DNA of 64,000 nucleotides from the NCBI GenBank assembly GCA_038240075.1, contig JBBSEC010000003.1, positions 5,753 to 69,752 on the forward strand, written 5' to 3'. Below are positions 2,305 to 38,342 of this stretch, piece by piece. A model generated the notes under the pieces. It was not told where the DNA came from. It did not search any database and saw nothing but the letters and a program-made list of their open reading frames with translations. The translations under genes and the position numbers were made by a program. Each line of letters begins with the position of its first letter. Positions within the stretch are counted from its first letter, which is position 1. Source of the stretch: Acidimicrobiia bacterium (GTDB taxonomy: Bacteria; Actinomycetota; Acidimicrobiia; IMCC26256; PALSA-610).

Positions 2305-3569
2305 TGGTCGAGTCCGAGCCGCCCACGAAGCCGGCGATCAGCCGGCGTCGCTTCGTCGGTGGCCTTGGCGCCGCGGGCGCGGTGGGCGTGGGTGCCGCGC
2401 TCGTCGGCAAGTCGGTGATCTGGACCGATTCCGACGGCTCCGACGCGACGACGAGCACCGCGCCGGCGGTCGATTTCTACGGCGCGCATCAAGCGGGCAT
2501 CGCGACGCCGGCCCAGGACCGGCTCCTGTTCGGAGCGTTCGACGTCACGAGTGCGAGCCGCGCGGATCTGGTTGCGCTGCTGAAGCAGTGGACGAGCGCG
2601 TGCGCTCATTTCGCAGGCGGTCGGCAGATTGGCCGCAACGACGTCGAGGCGGCGCCCCCGGACGACACGGGAGAGGCGCTCGATCTCGCTCCCGCGCGCC
2701 TCACGATGACCTTCGGGTTCGGACCGACGATGTTCGACGACCGCTTCGGGCTCTCCGGCAAGCGGCCCGCGGCGCTGATCGACCTTCCCGCGTTCGACCA
2801 CGACAACATCGATCCCGCGATCTCGGGCGGCGACATCGGCGTGCAGGTGTGCGCCGACGATCCGACGGTCGCGTTCCACGCGCTACGCAACCTCACGCGG
2901 ATCGGCAAGGGCGTGGTCGGCCTGCGGTGGACGCAGCTCGGGTTCGGCCGCACCTCGAGCACGAGTGCGAGTCAGGAAACGCCCCGCAACCTGATGGGGT
3001 TCAAAGACGGCACCAACAACGTCGCGGGCGACAACCGTGCGCTCATGGAGTCGCAGGTGTGGGTCGGGCCCAGCGATCAACCGGCGTGGATGCGGGGTGG
3101 TTCCTACCTCGTCGCGCGCCGGATCCGGATGCGTATCGAGCAGTGGGACCGTGACTTCCTCGGCGATCAGGAGAACGTGATCGGACGAATCAAGTCGACG
3201 GGCGCGCCACTCGGCCGGCTCCACGAACGCGATCTGGTTCCTCTTGAGGCAGCACACGCCGACGGATCGCTCGTCATCCCGCCCGACGCGCACATTCGGT
3301 TGGCCGCGCCGGCGACGAACGGGGGCGCGCACCTCCTGCGCCGCGGGTACTCGTTCACCGATGGGGTCAGCCCGGTGACCGCGGGGCTCGACGCCGGTCT
3401 CTTCTTCCTGGCCTACATGCGCGATCCGCGCAAGCAGTTCGTGCCGATCCAGAACCGGCTGGCTGCGAACGACGCGCTGAACGAGTACATCGAGCACGGG
3501 TCGACCGCCATCTTCGCGGTGCCGCCCGGAGTCGAGCACGGCGGCTACATCGGTGGAACACTCCTCTGA
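2304..3569 (+). CDS. efeB: Dyp-type peroxidase EfeB with Tat signal
   Basis: SRRRFVGGLGAAGAV twin-arginine leader and Dyp-like body. The ATG overlaps the TAA of the preceding gene (TAATG), consistent with an efeUOB operon. Confidence 0.9.
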   Translation: MVESEPPTKPAISRRRFVGGLGAAGAVGVGAALVGKSVIWTDSDGSDATTSTAPAVDFYGAHQAGIATPAQDRLLFGAFDVTSASRADLVALLKQWTSACAHFAGGRQIGRNDVEAAPPDDTGEALDLAPARLTMTFGFGPTMFDDRFGLSGKRPAALIDLPAFDHDNIDPAISGGDIGVQVCADDPTVAFHALRNLTRIGKGVVGLRWTQLGFGRTSSTSASQETPRNLMGFKDGTNNVAGDNRALMESQVWVGPSDQPAWMRGGSYLVARRIRMRIEQWDRDFLGDQENVIGRIKSTGAPLGRLHERDLVPLEAAHADGSLVIPPDAHIRLAAPATNGGAHLLRRGYSFTDGVSPVTAGLDAGLFFLAYMRDPRKQFVPIQNRLAANDALNEYIEHGSTAIFAVPPGVEHGGYIGGTLL

Positions 3570-3640
3570 GCAGCCGCAGCGAGGGCGAGCAGTGCGGCAC
3601 ATGACGGTGAGGCGCATGCGGATGCGACCATGAGGCGGGC
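3570..3640 (+). repeat. family-1 intergenic module, copy A (diverged)
   Basis: GCAGCCGCAGCGAGGGCGAGCAGTGCGGCACATGACGGTGAGGCGCATGCGGATGCGACCATGAGGCGGGC aligns with the copies at 5859, 12443, 12515 and 36751. It fills the whole efeB-stop to next-ATG spacer. Confidence 0.6.
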
Positions 3641-4021
3641 ATGAAGAAGAGTGATGCGCTCGCACGCGTGCGCAAGATCTGTATGGCCTTCCCGGCGACG
3701 GAGGAGCGTCTGAGTCACGGCGCACCGACGTTCTTCGCGGGGGGCAAGAAGACCTTCGTCATGTTCCTCGACGATCACCACGGCGACGGCCGCCTCGCCA
3801 TCTGGTGCAGCGCTCCGCCCGGGATCCAGGCGACGCTCGTCGACGAGGAGCCCACGCGCTTCTTCGTGCCGGCCTATGTCGGCACCCGGGGCTGGGTCGG
3901 CGTGCGCCTCGATATCGATGTCGATTGGGACGAGGTCGCCGGCATCATCGACGACGGGTTCCGCGAAGTTGCGACGAAGCGCCTGATCGCCGAGCATGAG
4001 CAGAGCAGACGCACGAAATGA
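3641..4021 (+). CDS. MmcQ/YjbR-family protein
   Basis: 126 aa. KICMAFPATEERLSHGAPTFF...RGWVGVRLD pattern typical of the YjbR/MmcQ fold. Confidence 0.8.
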   Translation: MKKSDALARVRKICMAFPATEERLSHGAPTFFAGGKKTFVMFLDDHHGDGRLAIWCSAPPGIQATLVDEEPTRFFVPAYVGTRGWVGVRLDIDVDWDEVAGIIDDGFREVATKRLIAEHEQSRRTK

Positions 4022-4524
4022 CGGAGGACGGCATGGCGGCGCAACCAATGGGCCACGGGGTGAAGCAGCGCGACGTCATCAAGATGTCCGACGCGGAGGT
4101 GGATGGGTTTCTTCGTGACGGGCGCACCATGTCGTTCGCGACGATGAACCACGACGCGACGATCCACGTCGTGGCGATGTGGTACGGATTTCTCGAAGGA
4201 GCGATCGCGTTCGAGACGAAGGCGAAGTCGCAGAAGGTGCGCAATCTGCTGCGCAATCCGACCATCACGTGCATGGTCGAAGACGGCACGACGTATGAGG
4301 AGCTTCGCGGCGTCGAGCTCGTTGGCACCGCCGAGATCATCGACGACCCCGAGCGGATGTACGAGCTCGGGATCAGCGTCTTCGAGCGGTATCAAGGGCC
4401 GTACAGCGAAGAGATGCGCCCGTTCGTCGAGGTCATGCTCAACAAGCGCGTCGTCGTGAAGATCGCGGTCGACCGCGCCGTCTCCTGGGACCACCGCAAG
4501 CTCGGCCTGCCGCCCACGGCTTGA
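4018..4524 (+). CDS. pyridoxamine 5'-phosphate oxidase-like (PPOX-class, probably F420/FMN-dependent) protein
   Basis: 168 aa. PPOX-like split-barrel sequence (MSFATMNHDATIHVVAMWY...). ATGA overlap with the previous gene. Confidence 0.8.
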   Translation: MTEDGMAAQPMGHGVKQRDVIKMSDAEVDGFLRDGRTMSFATMNHDATIHVVAMWYGFLEGAIAFETKAKSQKVRNLLRNPTITCMVEDGTTYEELRGVELVGTAEIIDDPERMYELGISVFERYQGPYSEEMRPFVEVMLNKRVVVKIAVDRAVSWDHRKLGLPPTA

Positions 4525-5852
4525 GCGCCCCGCCGAGTCCGCTGCCTGCAATCGCGCCGGGGCCGCCGGCCGCGACCATCACGTTTCCGTGGGACGACGC
4601 CGGCGCGCCCGACCCGGTCGCGGCGCTCACCGCCGCGCGTGCCGAGCTCGGCGACACGTTCGTCGTCGACTCGGGTCCCGACCGCTACCTGTTCGTGTTC
4701 GGCGGTGTCGCGCTCACGAACTTCTACGCGCTCCCCGAACGGATCGCGAGCAAGGGCCTCGCCGACTACCGCATGTTGTTGCGCAAGCTGCCCGACGAGC
4801 TGTTCCTCGGCCGGCGCACCTACGCGCACGACTTGTTCGGCGTGCAGGAGGTCGAGGGATACCTCGATCACCTCGATCTCGCGGTCGACCGGCAGATCGC
4901 CGAGCTCGGCGACGCAGGAACCTTCGACGCGTTCGCGTTGGCGCGCCGCCTCGGCCACCGTCTTGCCCTCGGCTGCTGGATGGGCGACGCCGCGGCCGCG
5001 CCTCCGCAGCTCGACACGCTCATCGCCGACCTCGAGTGTCTCGATGGCGCGGAGGCGTTCGTGAACCCGGAACGCATGGCCGGCCGCGACGGAGTCAAGG
5101 CCGTCGAGCGCGCCGCGCTCGCTCGCATCGAGTCGGTGGTTGCGTCGCGTCTCGCGAGCGCGGAGAGCCGCGATCCGGACCCCGATGGCTTTTTCGGTGA
5201 GATCGCACACCGCTGGGACGACGTCGACGCTTCGGAGCGGGTTCGCGGCGTGACCGGCGACGTCGTGCTGCTGCACGTGGCGACGATGACGAATCTCTTC
5301 GCGGCGCTGGGATGGACCCTGTCCCTCGTGCTGCTCGACGAGCGCGTCCGCGCGCGGGTCGAGGCCGGAGCCGACCGTGCCTACCTCGACCGCTGCGCGC
5401 TCGAAGCGATCCGGATCGGACAGCGCTCGATCATGCTGCGGTCAGTCTTGAAGCCGTGCGACTTCGACGACGGCACCGCGAGCTTTCACCTCGATCCTGG
5501 AGTGCTCCTCGCGACCATGCTCCCGCTCACGAACACGACGGCCCTGGCCGGCCTCGCCGACTTCGATCCCGATCGCTGGGACGGTCGCCGCCTGCGCGAG
5601 GCCGACGAGCTCGACGCGAAGGAGGTCGTCACCACCTTCGGGCACGGTGGTCATCGCTGTCCGGCGCAACGGTTCTCCCTGTCGGCGATCGACCGCGCGG
5701 GCGAGCGGCTCTTCGCGACCTTCGAGCTGCGGCCGCGCTTCGATTCGGTGCGCCCGATCCCGTCACAGATCGGGGGAGTGGCGCGCGCGGCCGACCCGTG
5801 TCCTGTCGACTACGTCCGCAGGCCCGCCGGTACTCTGCGCCCAGTCATTTAG
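4521..5852 (+). CDS. cytochrome P450
   Basis: Heme-thiolate loop FGHGGHRCPAQ near the C-terminus. TTG start overlaps the upstream TGA. Confidence 0.9.
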   Translation: MSAPPSPLPAIAPGPPAATITFPWDDAGAPDPVAALTAARAELGDTFVVDSGPDRYLFVFGGVALTNFYALPERIASKGLADYRMLLRKLPDELFLGRRTYAHDLFGVQEVEGYLDHLDLAVDRQIAELGDAGTFDAFALARRLGHRLALGCWMGDAAAAPPQLDTLIADLECLDGAEAFVNPERMAGRDGVKAVERAALARIESVVASRLASAESRDPDPDGFFGEIAHRWDDVDASERVRGVTGDVVLLHVATMTNLFAALGWTLSLVLLDERVRARVEAGADRAYLDRCALEAIRIGQRSIMLRSVLKPCDFDDGTASFHLDPGVLLATMLPLTNTTALAGLADFDPDRWDGRRLREADELDAKEVVTTFGHGGHRCPAQRFSLSAIDRAGERLFATFELRPRFDSVRPIPSQIGGVARAADPCPVDYVRRPAGTLRPVI

Positions 5853-5858
5853 GGGGCC

Positions 5859-5938
5859 GGAGCAGGCGCAGCCGGCGTGACGAGCGCGACGCGAGACGGC
5901 GAAGCGCATGCGGATGCGACAATGGGAGCGGGGGTTCT
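5859..5938 (+). repeat. family-1 intergenic module, copy B
   Basis: GGAGCAGGCGCAGCCGGCGTGACGAGCGCGACGCGAGACGGCGAAGCGCATGCGGATGCGACAATG... starts 6 nt after the P450 TAG and runs to the ATG at 5939. Confidence 0.7.
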
Positions 5939-12443: not shown

Positions 12444-12577
12444 GAGCAGGCGCAACCGCGGTGACCAGTGCAACGCACGACGGTGAAGCGCCCGCGCATG
12501 CGACCGGCCAAACAGGAGCAGGCGCAACCGCGGTGACCAGTGCAACGCACGACGGTGAAGCGCCCGCGCATGCGACC
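12443..12577 (+). repeat. family-1 intergenic module, two perfect tandem copies (C1 12443-12505, C2 12515-12577)
   Basis: An identical 63-nt unit occurs twice, 72-nt period. It spans from the last base of the ALDH TAG to the base before the P450 ATG. Confidence 0.85.
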
Positions 12578-13750
12578 ATGAATTACGACCCGTACGACTA
12601 CGCGATCGACGCGGATCCGCATCCGGTCTGGAAGCGGATGCGCGACGACGCGCCCGTCTACTGGAACGAGCAGTACCAGTTCTGGGCGTTGAGCCGCTTC
12701 GCCGACGTCTACGAGGCGTCGCGCGACATCGAGACGTTCAGCTCGGCGCGCGGCACGGTGCTCGAGTTGATCGATCACCCGATCGAGGCGTTCGCGCCGA
12801 TGATCTTCCAGGATCCGCCGTATCACACGGTGCTGCGGGCGCTGGTGAGTCGGGCGTTCACGCCGCGTCGCATCGCGTCGCTCGAGGCTCGCATTCGCGA
12901 GCTGGTCGCCGAATACCTCGACCCGTGGATCGGTGCCGGCGAGTTCGACTTCGTGCAGGAGTTCGCGGCGAAGTTGCCCGCGATGGTGATCGGCTCGTTG
13001 CTCGGTGTCCCGGAGGGCGATCAGGACACCGTTCGCCGCCAGACCGACGAGATGCTGCACATCGAGCCGGGCGAAACGATGACCGACAAACGCGAGGTCA
13101 TGGACCTCTACGGCTACTGGTTCGAGCTGATCAAGGAGCGCCGCGCCCAACCGCGCGACGACATGATCAGCGCGCTGCTGGCGTCGGAGATGATCGGCGA
13201 CGACGGTGAGCCCCGCCGCCTCGACGACATGGAGCTGCTCGCGTTCATCGGCCTGCTCTCGGGCGCCGGCAACGAGACGGTTGCGCGCCTCTTGAGCTGG
13301 GCCGCGGTGCTGCTCGCGCGTCACCCCGACCAGCGCGCGCAGCTCGTCGCCGATCCTGCGGGTCTGCTCCCGAACGCGGTCGAGGAGCTCCTGCGCTACG
13401 AGGCACCGTCGCCGATCCAGGCCCGCTGGGTGACCCGCCCCGTCGAGCTGCACGGAGTTTCGATCCCGGCCGAGTGCAAGATCGCGCTGCTCACGGGCAG
13501 CGCCGGGCGCGACGAACGCGAGTACCCCGACGCCGATCGCTTCGACGTGCGCCGAACCTTCAGCCGGCACGCGTCGTTCGGTTACGGACCGCACTTCTGT
13601 CTCGGCGCGGCGCTCGCGCGGCTCGAAGCCCGCGTCGCGCTCGAGGAGACGCTGGCCCGCTTCCCGACCTGGGACATCGACGAGTCAGGGCTGCGCTGGG
13701 TGCACACCAGCACCGTGCGCGGCTACGAAACGGTGCCCTTCAGCGGCTGA
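12578..13750 (+). CDS. cytochrome P450
   Basis: MNYDPYDYAIDADPHPVW start and FGYGPHFCLGAALARLE heme loop. The track ORF starts at 12461 only because the repeat is in frame. Confidence 0.9.
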   Translation: MNYDPYDYAIDADPHPVWKRMRDDAPVYWNEQYQFWALSRFADVYEASRDIETFSSARGTVLELIDHPIEAFAPMIFQDPPYHTVLRALVSRAFTPRRIASLEARIRELVAEYLDPWIGAGEFDFVQEFAAKLPAMVIGSLLGVPEGDQDTVRRQTDEMLHIEPGETMTDKREVMDLYGYWFELIKERRAQPRDDMISALLASEMIGDDGEPRRLDDMELLAFIGLLSGAGNETVARLLSWAAVLLARHPDQRAQLVADPAGLLPNAVEELLRYEAPSPIQARWVTRPVELHGVSIPAECKIALLTGSAGRDEREYPDADRFDVRRTFSRHASFGYGPHFCLGAALARLEARVALEETLARFPTWDIDESGLRWVHTSTVRGYETVPFSG

Positions 13751-16633: not shown

Positions 16634-16669
16634 CCCGCTTCCGCGCGGCGAGCCCCCCCGCCCACGTCC

Positions 16670-16715
16670 TTGGTACTGCACCTATGTCGTATGCGTCATA
16701 GGTGCAGTACCAGGG
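16670..16715. repeat. family-2 palindromic element, copy 1 (perfect 16-bp stem hairpin)
   Basis: TGGTACTGCACCTATG (16671-16686) pairs with CATAGGTGCAGTACCA (16697-16712), loop of 10 nt. It lies between convergent gene ends. There is a near-identical copy at 32037-32082. Confidence 0.75.
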
Positions 16716-23148: not shown

Positions 23149-23185
23149 TAGGAGCGGCGGAGGCACGCCGTTGTGCTATCCCCAC

Positions 23186-23247
23186 GGTCGCACACGCATG
23201 CGCTTCACCGTCTGCTCGTCATTGAGCACGGCCGCTGCGTCTGCTCC
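23186..23247 (-). repeat. family-1 module, copy E (inverted orientation, 1-nt indel)
   Basis: The reverse complement reads GGAGCAGACGCAGCGGCCGTGCTCAATGACGAGCAGACGGTGAAGCGCATGCGTGTGCGACC. Confidence 0.55.
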
Positions 23248-23252
23248 GCCCG

Positions 23253-31989: not shown

Positions 31990-32036
31990 CCTGATGTCTC
32001 ACGACGCCGGCCAGCACCCTGGGTCGAAACGGCTGC

Positions 32037-32082
32037 TTGGTACTGCACCTATGTCGTATGCGTAGAAAGTGCAGTACCAGGG
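32037..32082. repeat. family-2 palindromic element, copy 2
   Basis: TTGGTACTGCACCTATGTCGTATGCGTAGAAAGTGCAGTACCAGGG. The first 27 nt and the last 14 nt are identical to copy 1. An 11-bp outer stem is kept. Confidence 0.7.
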
Positions 32083-32188
32083 ACCGTTTGGACCGCGGTG
32101 AACCGTGCGGCACGAGCGGGCGGTCGGCACGCGGGCTGGCCTCGGTGGGGTCTTGGTGAGTGCATGCGCTCCGAAGACGGTTCCTTGG

Positions 32189-35908: not shown

Positions 35909-36751
35909 ATGGCCGATCGCGACTACGAGATGATCACCTTCGAGCAGCAGGACAACGGCGTCGCGTGGCTGACGCTCAGCCGCCCACAGGTGCACAACGC
36001 CTTCAACATCCAGATGCGCAACGAGCTGAAGGACTGCTGGCGTTCCTTACGCTACGACGACGACGTCCGTTGCGTCGTGCTCACGGGGGCGGGCGAGCGG
36101 GCCTTCTGCACCGGGATCGACCGCACGGAGACGATGGGCGACGGCTATCCCGCCGACGGGGCCGCAAAGAAGGAAGGCGGGACCGGCTTCGCGAAGTCGC
36201 CGTGGATGTTCGACGACCCCGGCGACGAGATCGGCCCGAAGTCGTGCGATCTCTGGAAACCCGTCATCGCGGCAGTGAACGGCATCGCGTGCGGTGGCGC
36301 GTTCTACATGCTCGGTGAGGTCGAGTTCATCATCGCCGCGGACCACGCGACGTTCTTCGACCCCCACGTCACCTACGGCATGACGCCGGTGTTCGAGCCG
36401 ATCCACGTGATGCAAAAGATGCCGTTCCACGAGATCATGCGGATCTCGCTGCTCGGCAACCACGAACGCATGTCGGCGAAGCGCGCGCACGAGATCGGGT
36501 TCGTCTCGGAGGTCGCGCCCCTCGCCGAATTGCGTGAGCGCGCGCAGTGGGCGGCCGACGCGATCGCGTCGGCTCCGGCCCTCGCGACGGCGGGTGCCGT
36601 GCGTGCGCTCTGGATGGCGCTCGAGCTCTCTCGGAAACAGGCGCTCGACATGGGCTTCTCGCTCATCCGGATCGGCAGCGATCCCGCGAGCATCTCCGAA
36701 GGCCAGGAGAAGTTCGCGGGCGGACAGCGCATCGAGCCGAGGATCCGGTAG
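35909..36751 (+). CDS. enoyl-CoA hydratase/crotonase family protein
   Basis: 280 aa. LTGAGERAFCTGID...AVNGIACGGA. Confidence 0.9.
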   Translation: MADRDYEMITFEQQDNGVAWLTLSRPQVHNAFNIQMRNELKDCWRSLRYDDDVRCVVLTGAGERAFCTGIDRTETMGDGYPADGAAKKEGGTGFAKSPWMFDDPGDEIGPKSCDLWKPVIAAVNGIACGGAFYMLGEVEFIIAADHATFFDPHVTYGMTPVFEPIHVMQKMPFHEIMRISLLGNHERMSAKRAHEIGFVSEVAPLAELRERAQWAADAIASAPALATAGAVRALWMALELSRKQALDMGFSLIRIGSDPASISEGQEKFAGGQRIEPRIR

Positions 36752-36830
36752 GAGCGATCGCAACCGGCGTGACCAGTGCGACACAGGACGGACCAGCGCA
36801 TGCGAGCGCGACCGTGAGAATGATTCCAAC
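36751..36830 (+). repeat. family-1 intergenic module, copy D
   Basis: GGAGCGATCGCAACCGGCGTGACCAGTGCGACACAGGACGGACCAGCGCATGCGAGCGCGACCGTGAGAATGATTCCAAC runs from the last base of the crotonase TAG to the ligase GTG. Confidence 0.7.
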
Positions 36831-38342
36831 GTGACACTGTTCGCCGATCTGGTGGCGACGTCAGGTGCCGTCGCGGCGACGCGTTCGCGCATTGCGAAGG
36901 TCACCGCGCTCGCGGAGCGGTTGGGGCGGCTCGAGCCCGACGAGATCGCGGTCGCCGTGGGGTTCCTCACCGGCGAGCCTCGCCAGGGCCGCATCGGCAT
37001 CGGATGGTCGACGATCGGGTCGATCGACAACCCACCCGCCGCGACGCCGTCACTGACGCTCGGTGAGGTCGACGAAGCGGTCACCGCGGTCGCGGCGATG
37101 GCGGGCGCCGGATCGGTTGGCGATCGGCGCACGCTGCTCACGTCGGTGCTCGAGCGTGCGACGCAGCCGGAAGCCGACTTCATCCGGCAGCTCTTCACGG
37201 GCGGGCTACGCCAAGGTGCGCTCGCAGGCCTGATGCTCGACGCCGTCGCGCGCGCCTCCGAGGTCGAGCCCGCCGTCGTGCGCCGCGCCGCGATGCGCGG
37301 TGGCGATCTCGGTGCGACCGCGCGGCTCGCGCTCACGGGTGGGCGCGCGGCGCTCGAAGCGGTTCACTTCCAGGTGTTGCAGCCGGTGCTGCCGATGCTC
37401 GCCGGCAGCTCCGAGTCGGTGACCGCGGCGCTCGCGGCGACGGGCCCGGCGTCGGTCGAGTGGAAGCTCGACGGCGCCCGCGTGCAGGTGCATCGATCCG
37501 GTTCCGAGGTGCGGGTCTTCACCCGTAACCTCAACGATGTCACGGCCCGCCTGCCCGAGGTCGTCGCGCTGGTGCTGAGCCTGCCGGTCTCCGAGGTCGT
37601 GCTCGACGGTGAAGCGATCGGCGTGTCCGACGACGCGCGCCCGCAGCGGTTCCAGGACACGATGAGCCGCTTCGGTACCGACGCGATCGCTGATCCTCGT
37701 GCGCTGCGCGCGTTCTTCTTCGACTGTCTGCGCGCCGACGGTGTCGACCTGCTCGACGAACCCCTCTCGGCGCGACGCGAAGTGCTCGAGCGCGTCGCGC
37801 CAGGCTGGGTCGTGCCCGCGCTCGTCACCGAAGACGCCGCGGCGGGGGAGGCGTTCCTTGCCGAGGCGCTCGCGGCGGGCCATGAAGGCGTGATGGTGAA
37901 GGCGTTGGCGTCGACCTACGAAGCCGGACGCCGAGGCAAGGCATGGCGCAAGGTGAAACCCGTCCGCACCCTCGACCTCGTCGTGATCGGCGTCGAGTGG
38001 GGCCACGGCCGGCGCCGCGGCTGGCTGTCGAACCTCCACCTCGGCGCGCGAGGGCCCGACGACACGTTCGTCATGGTCGGCAAGACGTTCAAGGGCCTCA
38101 CCGACGCGTTGCTCACCTGGCAGACGGAGCGGCTGCAGGCAATCGCGATCTCCGACGACGGTCACGTCGTGATGGTCCGCCCCGAGCTGGTCGTCGAGAT
38201 CGCGCTCGACGGCGTGCAGGCGTCGAAGCGCTACGCCGGCGGTGTCGCCCTGCGGTTCGCGCGGGTGCGCGGCTACCGACCCGACAAGTCATCCGCCGAT
38301 GCCGACACCGTCGAAAGCGTCCGCGCGCTCCTACCCTCGTAG
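36831..38342 (+). CDS. ATP-dependent DNA ligase
   Basis: GTG 36831 gives VTLFADLVATSGAVAATRSRIAKV. Adenylation motif EWKLDGARVQVH, then MVKA...GRRGKAWRKVKP. Confidence 0.9.
   Translation: MTLFADLVATSGAVAATRSRIAKVTALAERLGRLEPDEIAVAVGFLTGEPRQGRIGIGWSTIGSIDNPPAATPSLTLGEVDEAVTAVAAMAGAGSVGDRRTLLTSVLERATQPEADFIRQLFTGGLRQGALAGLMLDAVARASEVEPAVVRRAAMRGGDLGATARLALTGGRAALEAVHFQVLQPVLPMLAGSSESVTAALAATGPASVEWKLDGARVQVHRSGSEVRVFTRNLNDVTARLPEVVALVLSLPVSEVVLDGEAIGVSDDARPQRFQDTMSRFGTDAIADPRALRAFFFDCLRADGVDLLDEPLSARREVLERVAPGWVVPALVTEDAAAGEAFLAEALAAGHEGVMVKALASTYEAGRRGKAWRKVKPVRTLDLVVIGVEWGHGRRRGWLSNLHLGARGPDDTFVMVGKTFKGLTDALLTWQTERLQAIAISDDGHVVMVRPELVVEIALDGVQASKRYAGGVALRFARVRGYRPDKSSADADTVESVRALLPS

Follow-up and report, generated by a model that had tools for sequence, protein, structure and literature searches.

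A dispersed intercistronic repeat with a covarying terminal stem in an uncultured Acidimicrobiia lineage and its probable preservation of translational coupling

The 64,000-nt stretch of contig JBBSEC010000003.1 from an Acidimicrobiia bacterium that was analysed here (the window) carries a 21-codon open reading frame (ORF) immediately upstream of an ATP-dependent DNA ligase gene. The ORF sits inside one copy, copy D, of a repeat with units of 64–67 nt, of which the window holds six copies. Analysis of these copies, together with their relatives on other contigs, indicates that copy D is probably a member of a dispersed, sometimes tandem intercistronic repeat that preserves translational coupling between the genes around it, in the manner of the interspersed repetitive units of mycobacteria (MIRUs) reportedly described by Supply et al. 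in 1997. The encoded peptide is best read as a by-product that has no function in itself. This view builds on the family itself, its anatomy, its placement between genes, the covariation of its terminal stem and the stop/start overlaps that recur at its edges.

Each unit opens with a 5′ arm, GGAGCAGnCGCA, continues through a loop of about 38 nt that holds a GTGA and the almost invariant core GACGGyGAAGCGCA, and closes with a complementary 3′ arm, yGCGn′ATGCGACC (consensus also given as uGCGn′AUGCGACC), with ATG or GTG immediately after it in 14 of 20 copies. The two arms form a terminal stem of 7–9 bp, in which columns 5–7 pair with columns 58–60 and columns 9–12 with columns 53–56; this stem was proposed by RNAalifold and then confirmed by counting pairs in 20 copies. 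Copy D (36750–36816, plus strand) is placed by alignment and scores 56 bits with nhmmer and 76.7 bits with R1, a covariance model derived from 20 distinct copies. Its 5′ arm, GCGATCGC, occupies columns 5–12 at 36754–36761 and includes the covarying positions 7 and 9, while its 3′ arm, GCGAGCGC, occupies columns 53–60 at 36802–36809, both on the plus strand; the assignment follows from RNAalifold, column counts and RNAfold, whose minimum-free-energy structure contains the stem.

The covarying terminal stem is the strongest signal in the repeat. Pair 7/58 is A–U in 16 copies and G–C in four and is never broken, and pair 9/56 occurs as C–G in ten copies, A–U in five, G–C in one, U–A in one and as a G·G opposition in three; these two are the top mutual-information column pairs of the whole alignment. 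The covariation score of the stem is 0.170, against 0.063 in shuffled alignments, with 0/500 shuffles as high, and slid registers reduce pairing to 8–45% of cells. At 9/56, each of the five distinct copy sequences of the window alone is in a different state, and four of these states are complementary. In addition, the purine–purine oppositions G8·A57, G3·A62 and A4·G61 are conserved, with copy D swapping G·A for A·G, and the two ends of the element form an imperfect 12-nt inverted repeat in which 9/12 positions match. Minimum-energy folds recover the stem in 7/8 copies. The preliminary description of this locus had judged the substitutions between copies to be unlike those of a structural repeat, a judgement that proved wrong: the two top mutual-information pairs are Watson–Crick partners in the stem, and the first base of the codon listed there as variable (D/-/S) is column 56, itself a covarying stem position.

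Copies are found between one gene's stop codon and the start codon of the next, the genes being unrelated to each other. In the window, the flanking pairs are Dyp peroxidase/YjbR, P450-like/APH, aldehyde dehydrogenase/P450 and enoyl-CoA hydratase (ECH)/ligase, and on other contigs the flanks include ispD/ispF, leuA/methyltransferase, a sulfotransferase, a dUTPase fragment and a tRNA gene. With the loci of window copies A–E designated wA–wE and those on other contigs given L-numbers, co-oriented gene pairs flank wA, wB, wC, wD, L245, L248 and L252. In most loci the 5′ edge lies at, or a few nucleotides from, the upstream stop codon. Specifically, copy A (3566–3632, plus strand), between the Dyp-type peroxidase gene and a YjbR-family gene, takes the peroxidase TGA as its columns 2–4; copy C1 (12442–12508, plus strand), the first unit of a tandem pair, begins at the aldehyde dehydrogenase stop codon; copy D begins at the AG of the ECH stop TAG and ends in GCGACC-GTG; and in L244 and L254 the upstream gene stops on a TGA inside the element. 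Copy C2 (12514–12580, plus strand), identical to C1 and set at a tandem period of 72 nt, terminates in an ATG (12578) at which a cytochrome P450 gene starts. Copy B (5858–5924, plus strand) separates a gene with a P450-like haem motif from an APH-family phosphotransferase gene, and copy E (23183–23248, minus strand) occupies a convergent intergenic region in which a co-oriented alpha/beta-hydrolase gene lies upstream of it and no gene follows. Relative to the neighbouring gene, 14 loci are sense and two (L251 and L256) antisense; since minus-strand copy E has the direction of the gene upstream of it, orientation tracks transcription and not one DNA strand.

Stop/start overlaps recur at the edges of the element. 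Downstream overlaps of −4 nt are found at wD (GTGA, with the ligase), at wA (ATGA), where the mini-ORF ATG AGG CGG GCA TGA overlaps the YjbR ATG at 3641, and at L253 (TTGA); upstream ATGA overlaps with the stop of the preceding gene are found at L244, L252 and L254. At wC2 and L248 the gene starts on the terminal ATG, which has no upstream Shine–Dalgarno motif. The two antisense loci are bridged in the opposite frame: the opposite strand of L251 holds three complete 22-codon ATG...TGA ORFs, the last TGA overlapping the GTG of a methyltransferase gene, and at L256 the upstream gene reads the reverse frame through the element to a TGA that overlaps the GTG of the next gene. No overlap occurs at wB, L242 or wE, so that edge overlaps are not universal. 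The termination–reinitiation geometry recognised earlier at the ligase is confirmed, as a feature that returns in both orientations and not as a one-off.

Beyond the window, about 19 further copies lie on 13 contigs from metagenomes or metagenome-assembled genomes (MAGs). A DNA pattern scan located copies on seven metagenome contigs and in one MAG (Actinomycetota bacterium), and peptide searches of the protein catalogue matched five proteins, leading to five more contigs with copies; the copy at L244 1590–1656 and that at L249 5263–5329 are the same locus. Model R1 gives 27 matches of at least 58 bits, and its best noise match reaches 20 bits. A strict pattern scan of genome contigs returned only L249, L251 and a probable chance match, L250, and a pattern scan of viral contigs found no copy. 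Among 80 related-genome ligase loci nhmmer detected no copy, nor did R1 in about 70 of them, from related Acidimicrobiia. The window has no Rfam match at the gathering threshold, and around copy D only chance-level matches appear at E≤10. Tandem arrays consist of 2–3 units arranged head to tail, with periods of 69 (L252), 71 (L243), 71 (L251), 72 (C1/C2), 72 (L248) and 73 nt (L254). The repeat family is real, specific and patchily distributed, and its host is an uncultured Acidimicrobiia lineage together with a few related soil organisms.

At the copy D locus, translation and a three-frame map place the 21-codon ORF at 36769–36834 on the plus strand, from GTG to TGA, with the product VTSATQDGPAHASATVRMIPT; its stop, TGA 36832–36834, overlaps the ligase GTG at 36831–36833 (GTGA). 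The coordinates and translation originally given for this ORF are exact. The same TGA also ends two further in-frame starts, GTG 36814 and ATG 36820. The GTGA of element columns 20–23, at 36769–36772 on the plus strand, belongs to the family consensus and is located by column counts and three-frame maps; its GTG is the ORF start and its TGA is in frame with the stop TAG of the upstream ECH gene (35909–36751, plus strand; Pfam ECH_1), which at 36749–36751 abuts copy D. For the ligase gene (36831–38342, plus strand), GTG 36831 is a credible start because an independent gene call on a Logan contig uses it, with an identical 503-aa product, because homologues align from residues 1–4 and the Pfam domains DNA_ligase_A_N/M/C are present, and because the three-frame map shows no alternative start codon in the ligase frame within the element. 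No Shine–Dalgarno motif is found in the 15 nt upstream of this GTG. The nearest relatives of the ligase are Acidimicrobiia MAGs, at identities of at most 69%. A separate assembly, Logan contig SRR24807096 (5173 nt), contains the same ECH–repeat–ligase junction and an identical ligase protein, so the source organism has been sampled at least twice.

From this arrangement we infer mobility of the repeat, translation of the ORF and coupling to the ligase. The repeat would be an insertion, selfish or neutral, tolerated in operons because its edge ORFs and NTGA overlaps keep downstream translation coupled. Ribosomes finishing the hydratase, or starting at GTG 36769, GTG 36814 or ATG 36820, would share one frame, terminate at TGA 36832–36834 and reinitiate at the overlapping ligase GTG 36831, itself devoid of a Shine–Dalgarno motif. 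Pairing of the stem may, in addition, place the upstream stop and the GGAG motif near the downstream start codon.

Such a design has close counterparts. MIRUs occur in dozens of copies per genome, insert at start codons and carry an internal ORF coupled at −4 nt (PMC12548453; PMC3184786). A repeated leader in front of unrelated genes had been regarded as unusual in the preliminary description; the MIRUs, with their internal ORF coupled at that distance, supply the precedent. Like the MIRUs, which are units of 40–100 bp between co-oriented operon genes (PMC12548453; PMC3184786), the present repeat, with a core of 64–67 nt, forms head-to-tail arrays of variable copy number, contains small internal ORFs that overlap the neighbours' stop and start codons at −4 nt, and has imperfect GC-rich terminal inverted repeats. 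It differs in its host, which is an acidimicrobial lineage and not Mycobacterium, so that the likeness claimed is only a functional analogy, and also in its prominent covarying terminal stem around a conserved 38-nt loop and in its two antisense loci, bridged by a frame on the opposite strand. With REP/BIME and ERIC/RU elements it shares the character of an interspersed, transcribed, stem-forming element in operon spacers; passages in PMC2759123 and PMC3184786 also describe some RU/ERIC copies as carrying ORFs and lying inside genes. However, REPs, which are associated with a Y1 transposase (RAYT), are compact imperfect palindromes of 21–65 bp (about 35 bp) that lack a large conserved loop, as opposed to a 7–9-bp stem around a loop of about 38 nt, and the orientations of BIMEs alternate, whereas the arrays described here are strictly head to tail. 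Short ORFs that end in a 4-nt stop/start overlap with a main gene are described in a review as ribosome delivery devices (PMC12548453). The present ORF resembles such termination–reinitiation upstream ORFs in that its stop overlaps the main-gene start by 4 nt (ATGA/GTGA), but it is borne by a repeat, stands before unrelated genes, and in many copies is missing, frameshifted or fused in frame. The repeat is a new family within an established kind of element, none of which is described in this lineage in the literature searched.

Several observations weigh against the account of a tolerated, coupling-preserving insertion. No empty site was found: in 0/80 related ligase loci does an ECH gene adjoin, and with this synteny absent in relatives no empty-site comparison is available. 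Flanking direct repeats are seen only at L251 (TGGTYAC) and L252 (12 nt). The copies fold no more stably than shuffled sequence (z about 0 in 7/8 copies), so it is covariation that carries the stem; its independent events are few, perhaps 4–5, and the copies are mutually related. A weak period-3 bias (p about 0.03) is left unexplained. Moreover, a purely selfish element does not explain the strongly conserved loop core, and the hairpin, the loop core and the stem-positioned GGAG leave room for a role at the RNA level, for instance as a split ribosome-binding site, which may exist and is rated lower.

The alternative in which the repeat is a functional cis-acting RNA module and not a passenger is unlikely, and it can take two forms. 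In one, the module would be a portable ribosome-binding cassette, the stem looping out about 47 nt and presenting the 5′ GGAG as a Shine–Dalgarno motif for the ATG or GTG at column 65; in the other, the loop sequence GACGGyGAAGCGCA would define a site of intercistronic processing, stability control or protein binding. Covariation of the stem and the 14-to-2 excess of sense loci speak for such a module, as do the conserved purine–purine oppositions with the G·A to A·G swap of copy D. GAGC at columns 3–6 is essentially invariant, [AG]TG follows at a fixed distance in 14/20 copies, genes starting at column 65 (the P450 gene at 12578 and the L248 gene) have no Shine–Dalgarno motif of their own, and the loop core is conserved beyond what a passive spacer would need. 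Many downstream genes (wA, wB, L242, L243c and L245), in contrast, use a later start with their own Shine–Dalgarno motif, two loci are antisense, and the flanking genes share no function. The loop itself shows no convincing helix or covariation in a mutual-information scan, the folding z is about 0, no Rfam family matches even at E≤10, and the absence of the family from related genomes argues against an essential regulatory role.

Still less probable, in our estimate, is that the repeat acts as a portable translation-initiation cassette in either orientation. In the sense orientation its covarying hairpin would then loop out about 47 nt and let the GGAG of the element act as the Shine–Dalgarno motif of its terminal ATG or GTG, and stop-free frames on both strands that end in NTGA overlaps would hand on ribosomes to the downstream gene. 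Under such a reading the weak period-3 signal would reflect selection for translatability and not for a peptide.

The claim that the repeat encodes a functional micropeptide or leader, approximately V-T-S-A-x-x-D-G-E-A-H-A-D-A-T, kept by purifying selection before many unrelated genes, appears very unlikely. It originated in a comparison of copies B, C and D, in which six synonymous codon differences were correctly listed; the accompanying count of three amino-acid changes falls short by one, as the changes are R/H/Q, E/E/P, H/P/H and D/H/S. Codon-position bias was assessed in 18 non-redundant copies from several organisms, with p values uncorrected for six frames. In the proposed frame, the columns of codon positions 1, 2 and 3 have entropies of 0.40, 0.71 and 0.96 bits (p=0.025), so that variable columns favour the third position, and the fraction of synonymous changes reaches 0.33, where 0.20 is expected (p=0.03). 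The larger alignment upholds the third-position excess, but a signal as strong or stronger comes from the complementary-strand frame with the same wobble columns, whose synonymous fraction is 0.42 against an expected 0.22 (p=0.012); the codon bias exists, is weak and has no power to identify the strand. The same frame has the best codon log-odds among the three forward frames, and gene callers annotate the peptide in tandem arrays (P0001 and P0003).

Integrity of the frame points the other way. A start codon at column 20 occurs in 13/20 copies and is missing in 7/20, and loop indels of 1 or 2 nt break the frame in five loci (wE, L242, L243c, L252 and L255). Eleven loci have the column-20 start, of which four are frameshifted before DGEAHA: wE, where a 1-nt deletion in copy E is responsible, L242, L243c and L252. 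L255 lacks a start and has its own indel. As a result of missing starts and frame-breaking indels, the peptide is encodable in only 7/17 loci. In the L252 copies the nucleotides of the left half are kept and read in another frame, three of the six array periods (71, 71 and 73 nt) are not divisible by 3, L251 and L256 run antisense to their operons, and no coding gene lies downstream of copy E or L244. The AGGAG motif lies 14 nt upstream of GTG 36769.

Codon usage differs from that of the host. The fourfold-degenerate columns 49, 55 and 61 do not vary, A46 persists in 14/15 copies, and the truly free columns, 9, 18 and 37, show saturation. Codons conserved in the repeat are seldom used in this genome (AGT makes up 4% of Ser; GAA 20%, GAT 18% and CAT 16%), and the third-position GC content (GC3) of the ORF frame is 0.67, against 0.885 in window genes. 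Its log-odds per codon, −0.09, compares with +0.61 ± 0.34 for genes and −0.78 ± 0.73 for off-frame sequence, and only 3.6% of gene windows score as low. Purifying selection on V-T-S-A-T-x-D-G-E-A-H-A-x-A-T, as originally proposed, is not sustained in view of the missing starts, the indels in five loci and the invariant fourfold sites. The stop-free character of the frames was set aside as coding evidence, being uninformative: 65% of shuffled frames are also stop-free.

There is similarly little to recommend a purely DNA-level identity, as a transposase-mobilised miniature inverted-repeat or single-stranded-DNA hairpin element or as the site of a DNA-binding protein, with ORFs and overlaps incidental: the imperfect 12-nt terminal inverted repeat (9/12), the direct repeats that flank the L251 and L252 arrays, the occurrence in both orientations, the six copies in 64 kb and the patchy distribution across genomes would fit, but orientation follows local gene direction, minus-strand copy E included, transposase-bound terminal repeats are not expected to show compensatory changes that differ between copies in the same genome, a consistent target-site duplication is not seen, and no transposase turned up, no search having been aimed at one. 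An integron attC site, a CRISPR, a riboswitch and a promoter were dropped, their required motifs and context being absent.

Several further features were observed at these loci and elsewhere in the window. At 12461–12580, copies C1 and C2, 72 nt apart, are in frame with the P450 ATG at 12578, which extends the longest ORF; the longest P450 ORF thereby acquires a spurious 39-residue N-terminal extension (MTSATHDGEAPAHATGQTGAGATAVTSATHDGEAPAHAT) and constitutes an annotation trap. The protein encoded at 4521–5849 has the P450-like haem motif FGHGGHRCPA, yet no Pfam match at 1e-5. The window as a whole is rich in oxidative and catabolic genes, with two of P450 type (4521–5849 and 12578–13747), an aldehyde dehydrogenase, several enoyl-CoA hydratases, a Dyp peroxidase and an amidohydrolase. 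The L244 copy lies about 90 nt upstream of an apparent tRNA gene (GGGGCGTGGCGCAGCTTGGTTAGCGCGCA...), and the TGA of its upstream gene forms columns 21–23. In L255 (503–1148 of an ENA contig) a dUTPase gene is split into two calls, the second of which reads through the element, here with 2 nt deleted, to a TAG on its far side; either a real fusion or an assembly indel could account for this. A second, unrelated repeat occurs in intergenic positions on the plus strand at 16668–16715 and 32036–32084 (CTTGGTACTGCACCTATGTCGTATGCGT...TGCAGTACCAGGG). Each of its copies is a hairpin with a 10–15-bp stem and no Rfam match at the gathering threshold; candidate identities are an operator, a terminator-like element and a small RNA.

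On the favoured explanation, small ORFs derived from the units, and the N- or C-terminal extensions to which they give rise, should not be called as genes in annotation; the 39-residue extension of the P450 at 12578 and P0001, P0003 and P0005 in public catalogues are examples. The tandem arrays could serve as strain markers of the variable-number tandem repeat (VNTR) type, and the family is a compact natural test of spacer tolerance at termination–reinitiation junctions. If the favoured explanation, a MIRU-like repeat that preserves coupling, is true, elements of this style would not be peculiar to mycobacteria and would also exist, with a clear hairpin, in a deep uncultured branch of the Actinomycetota.

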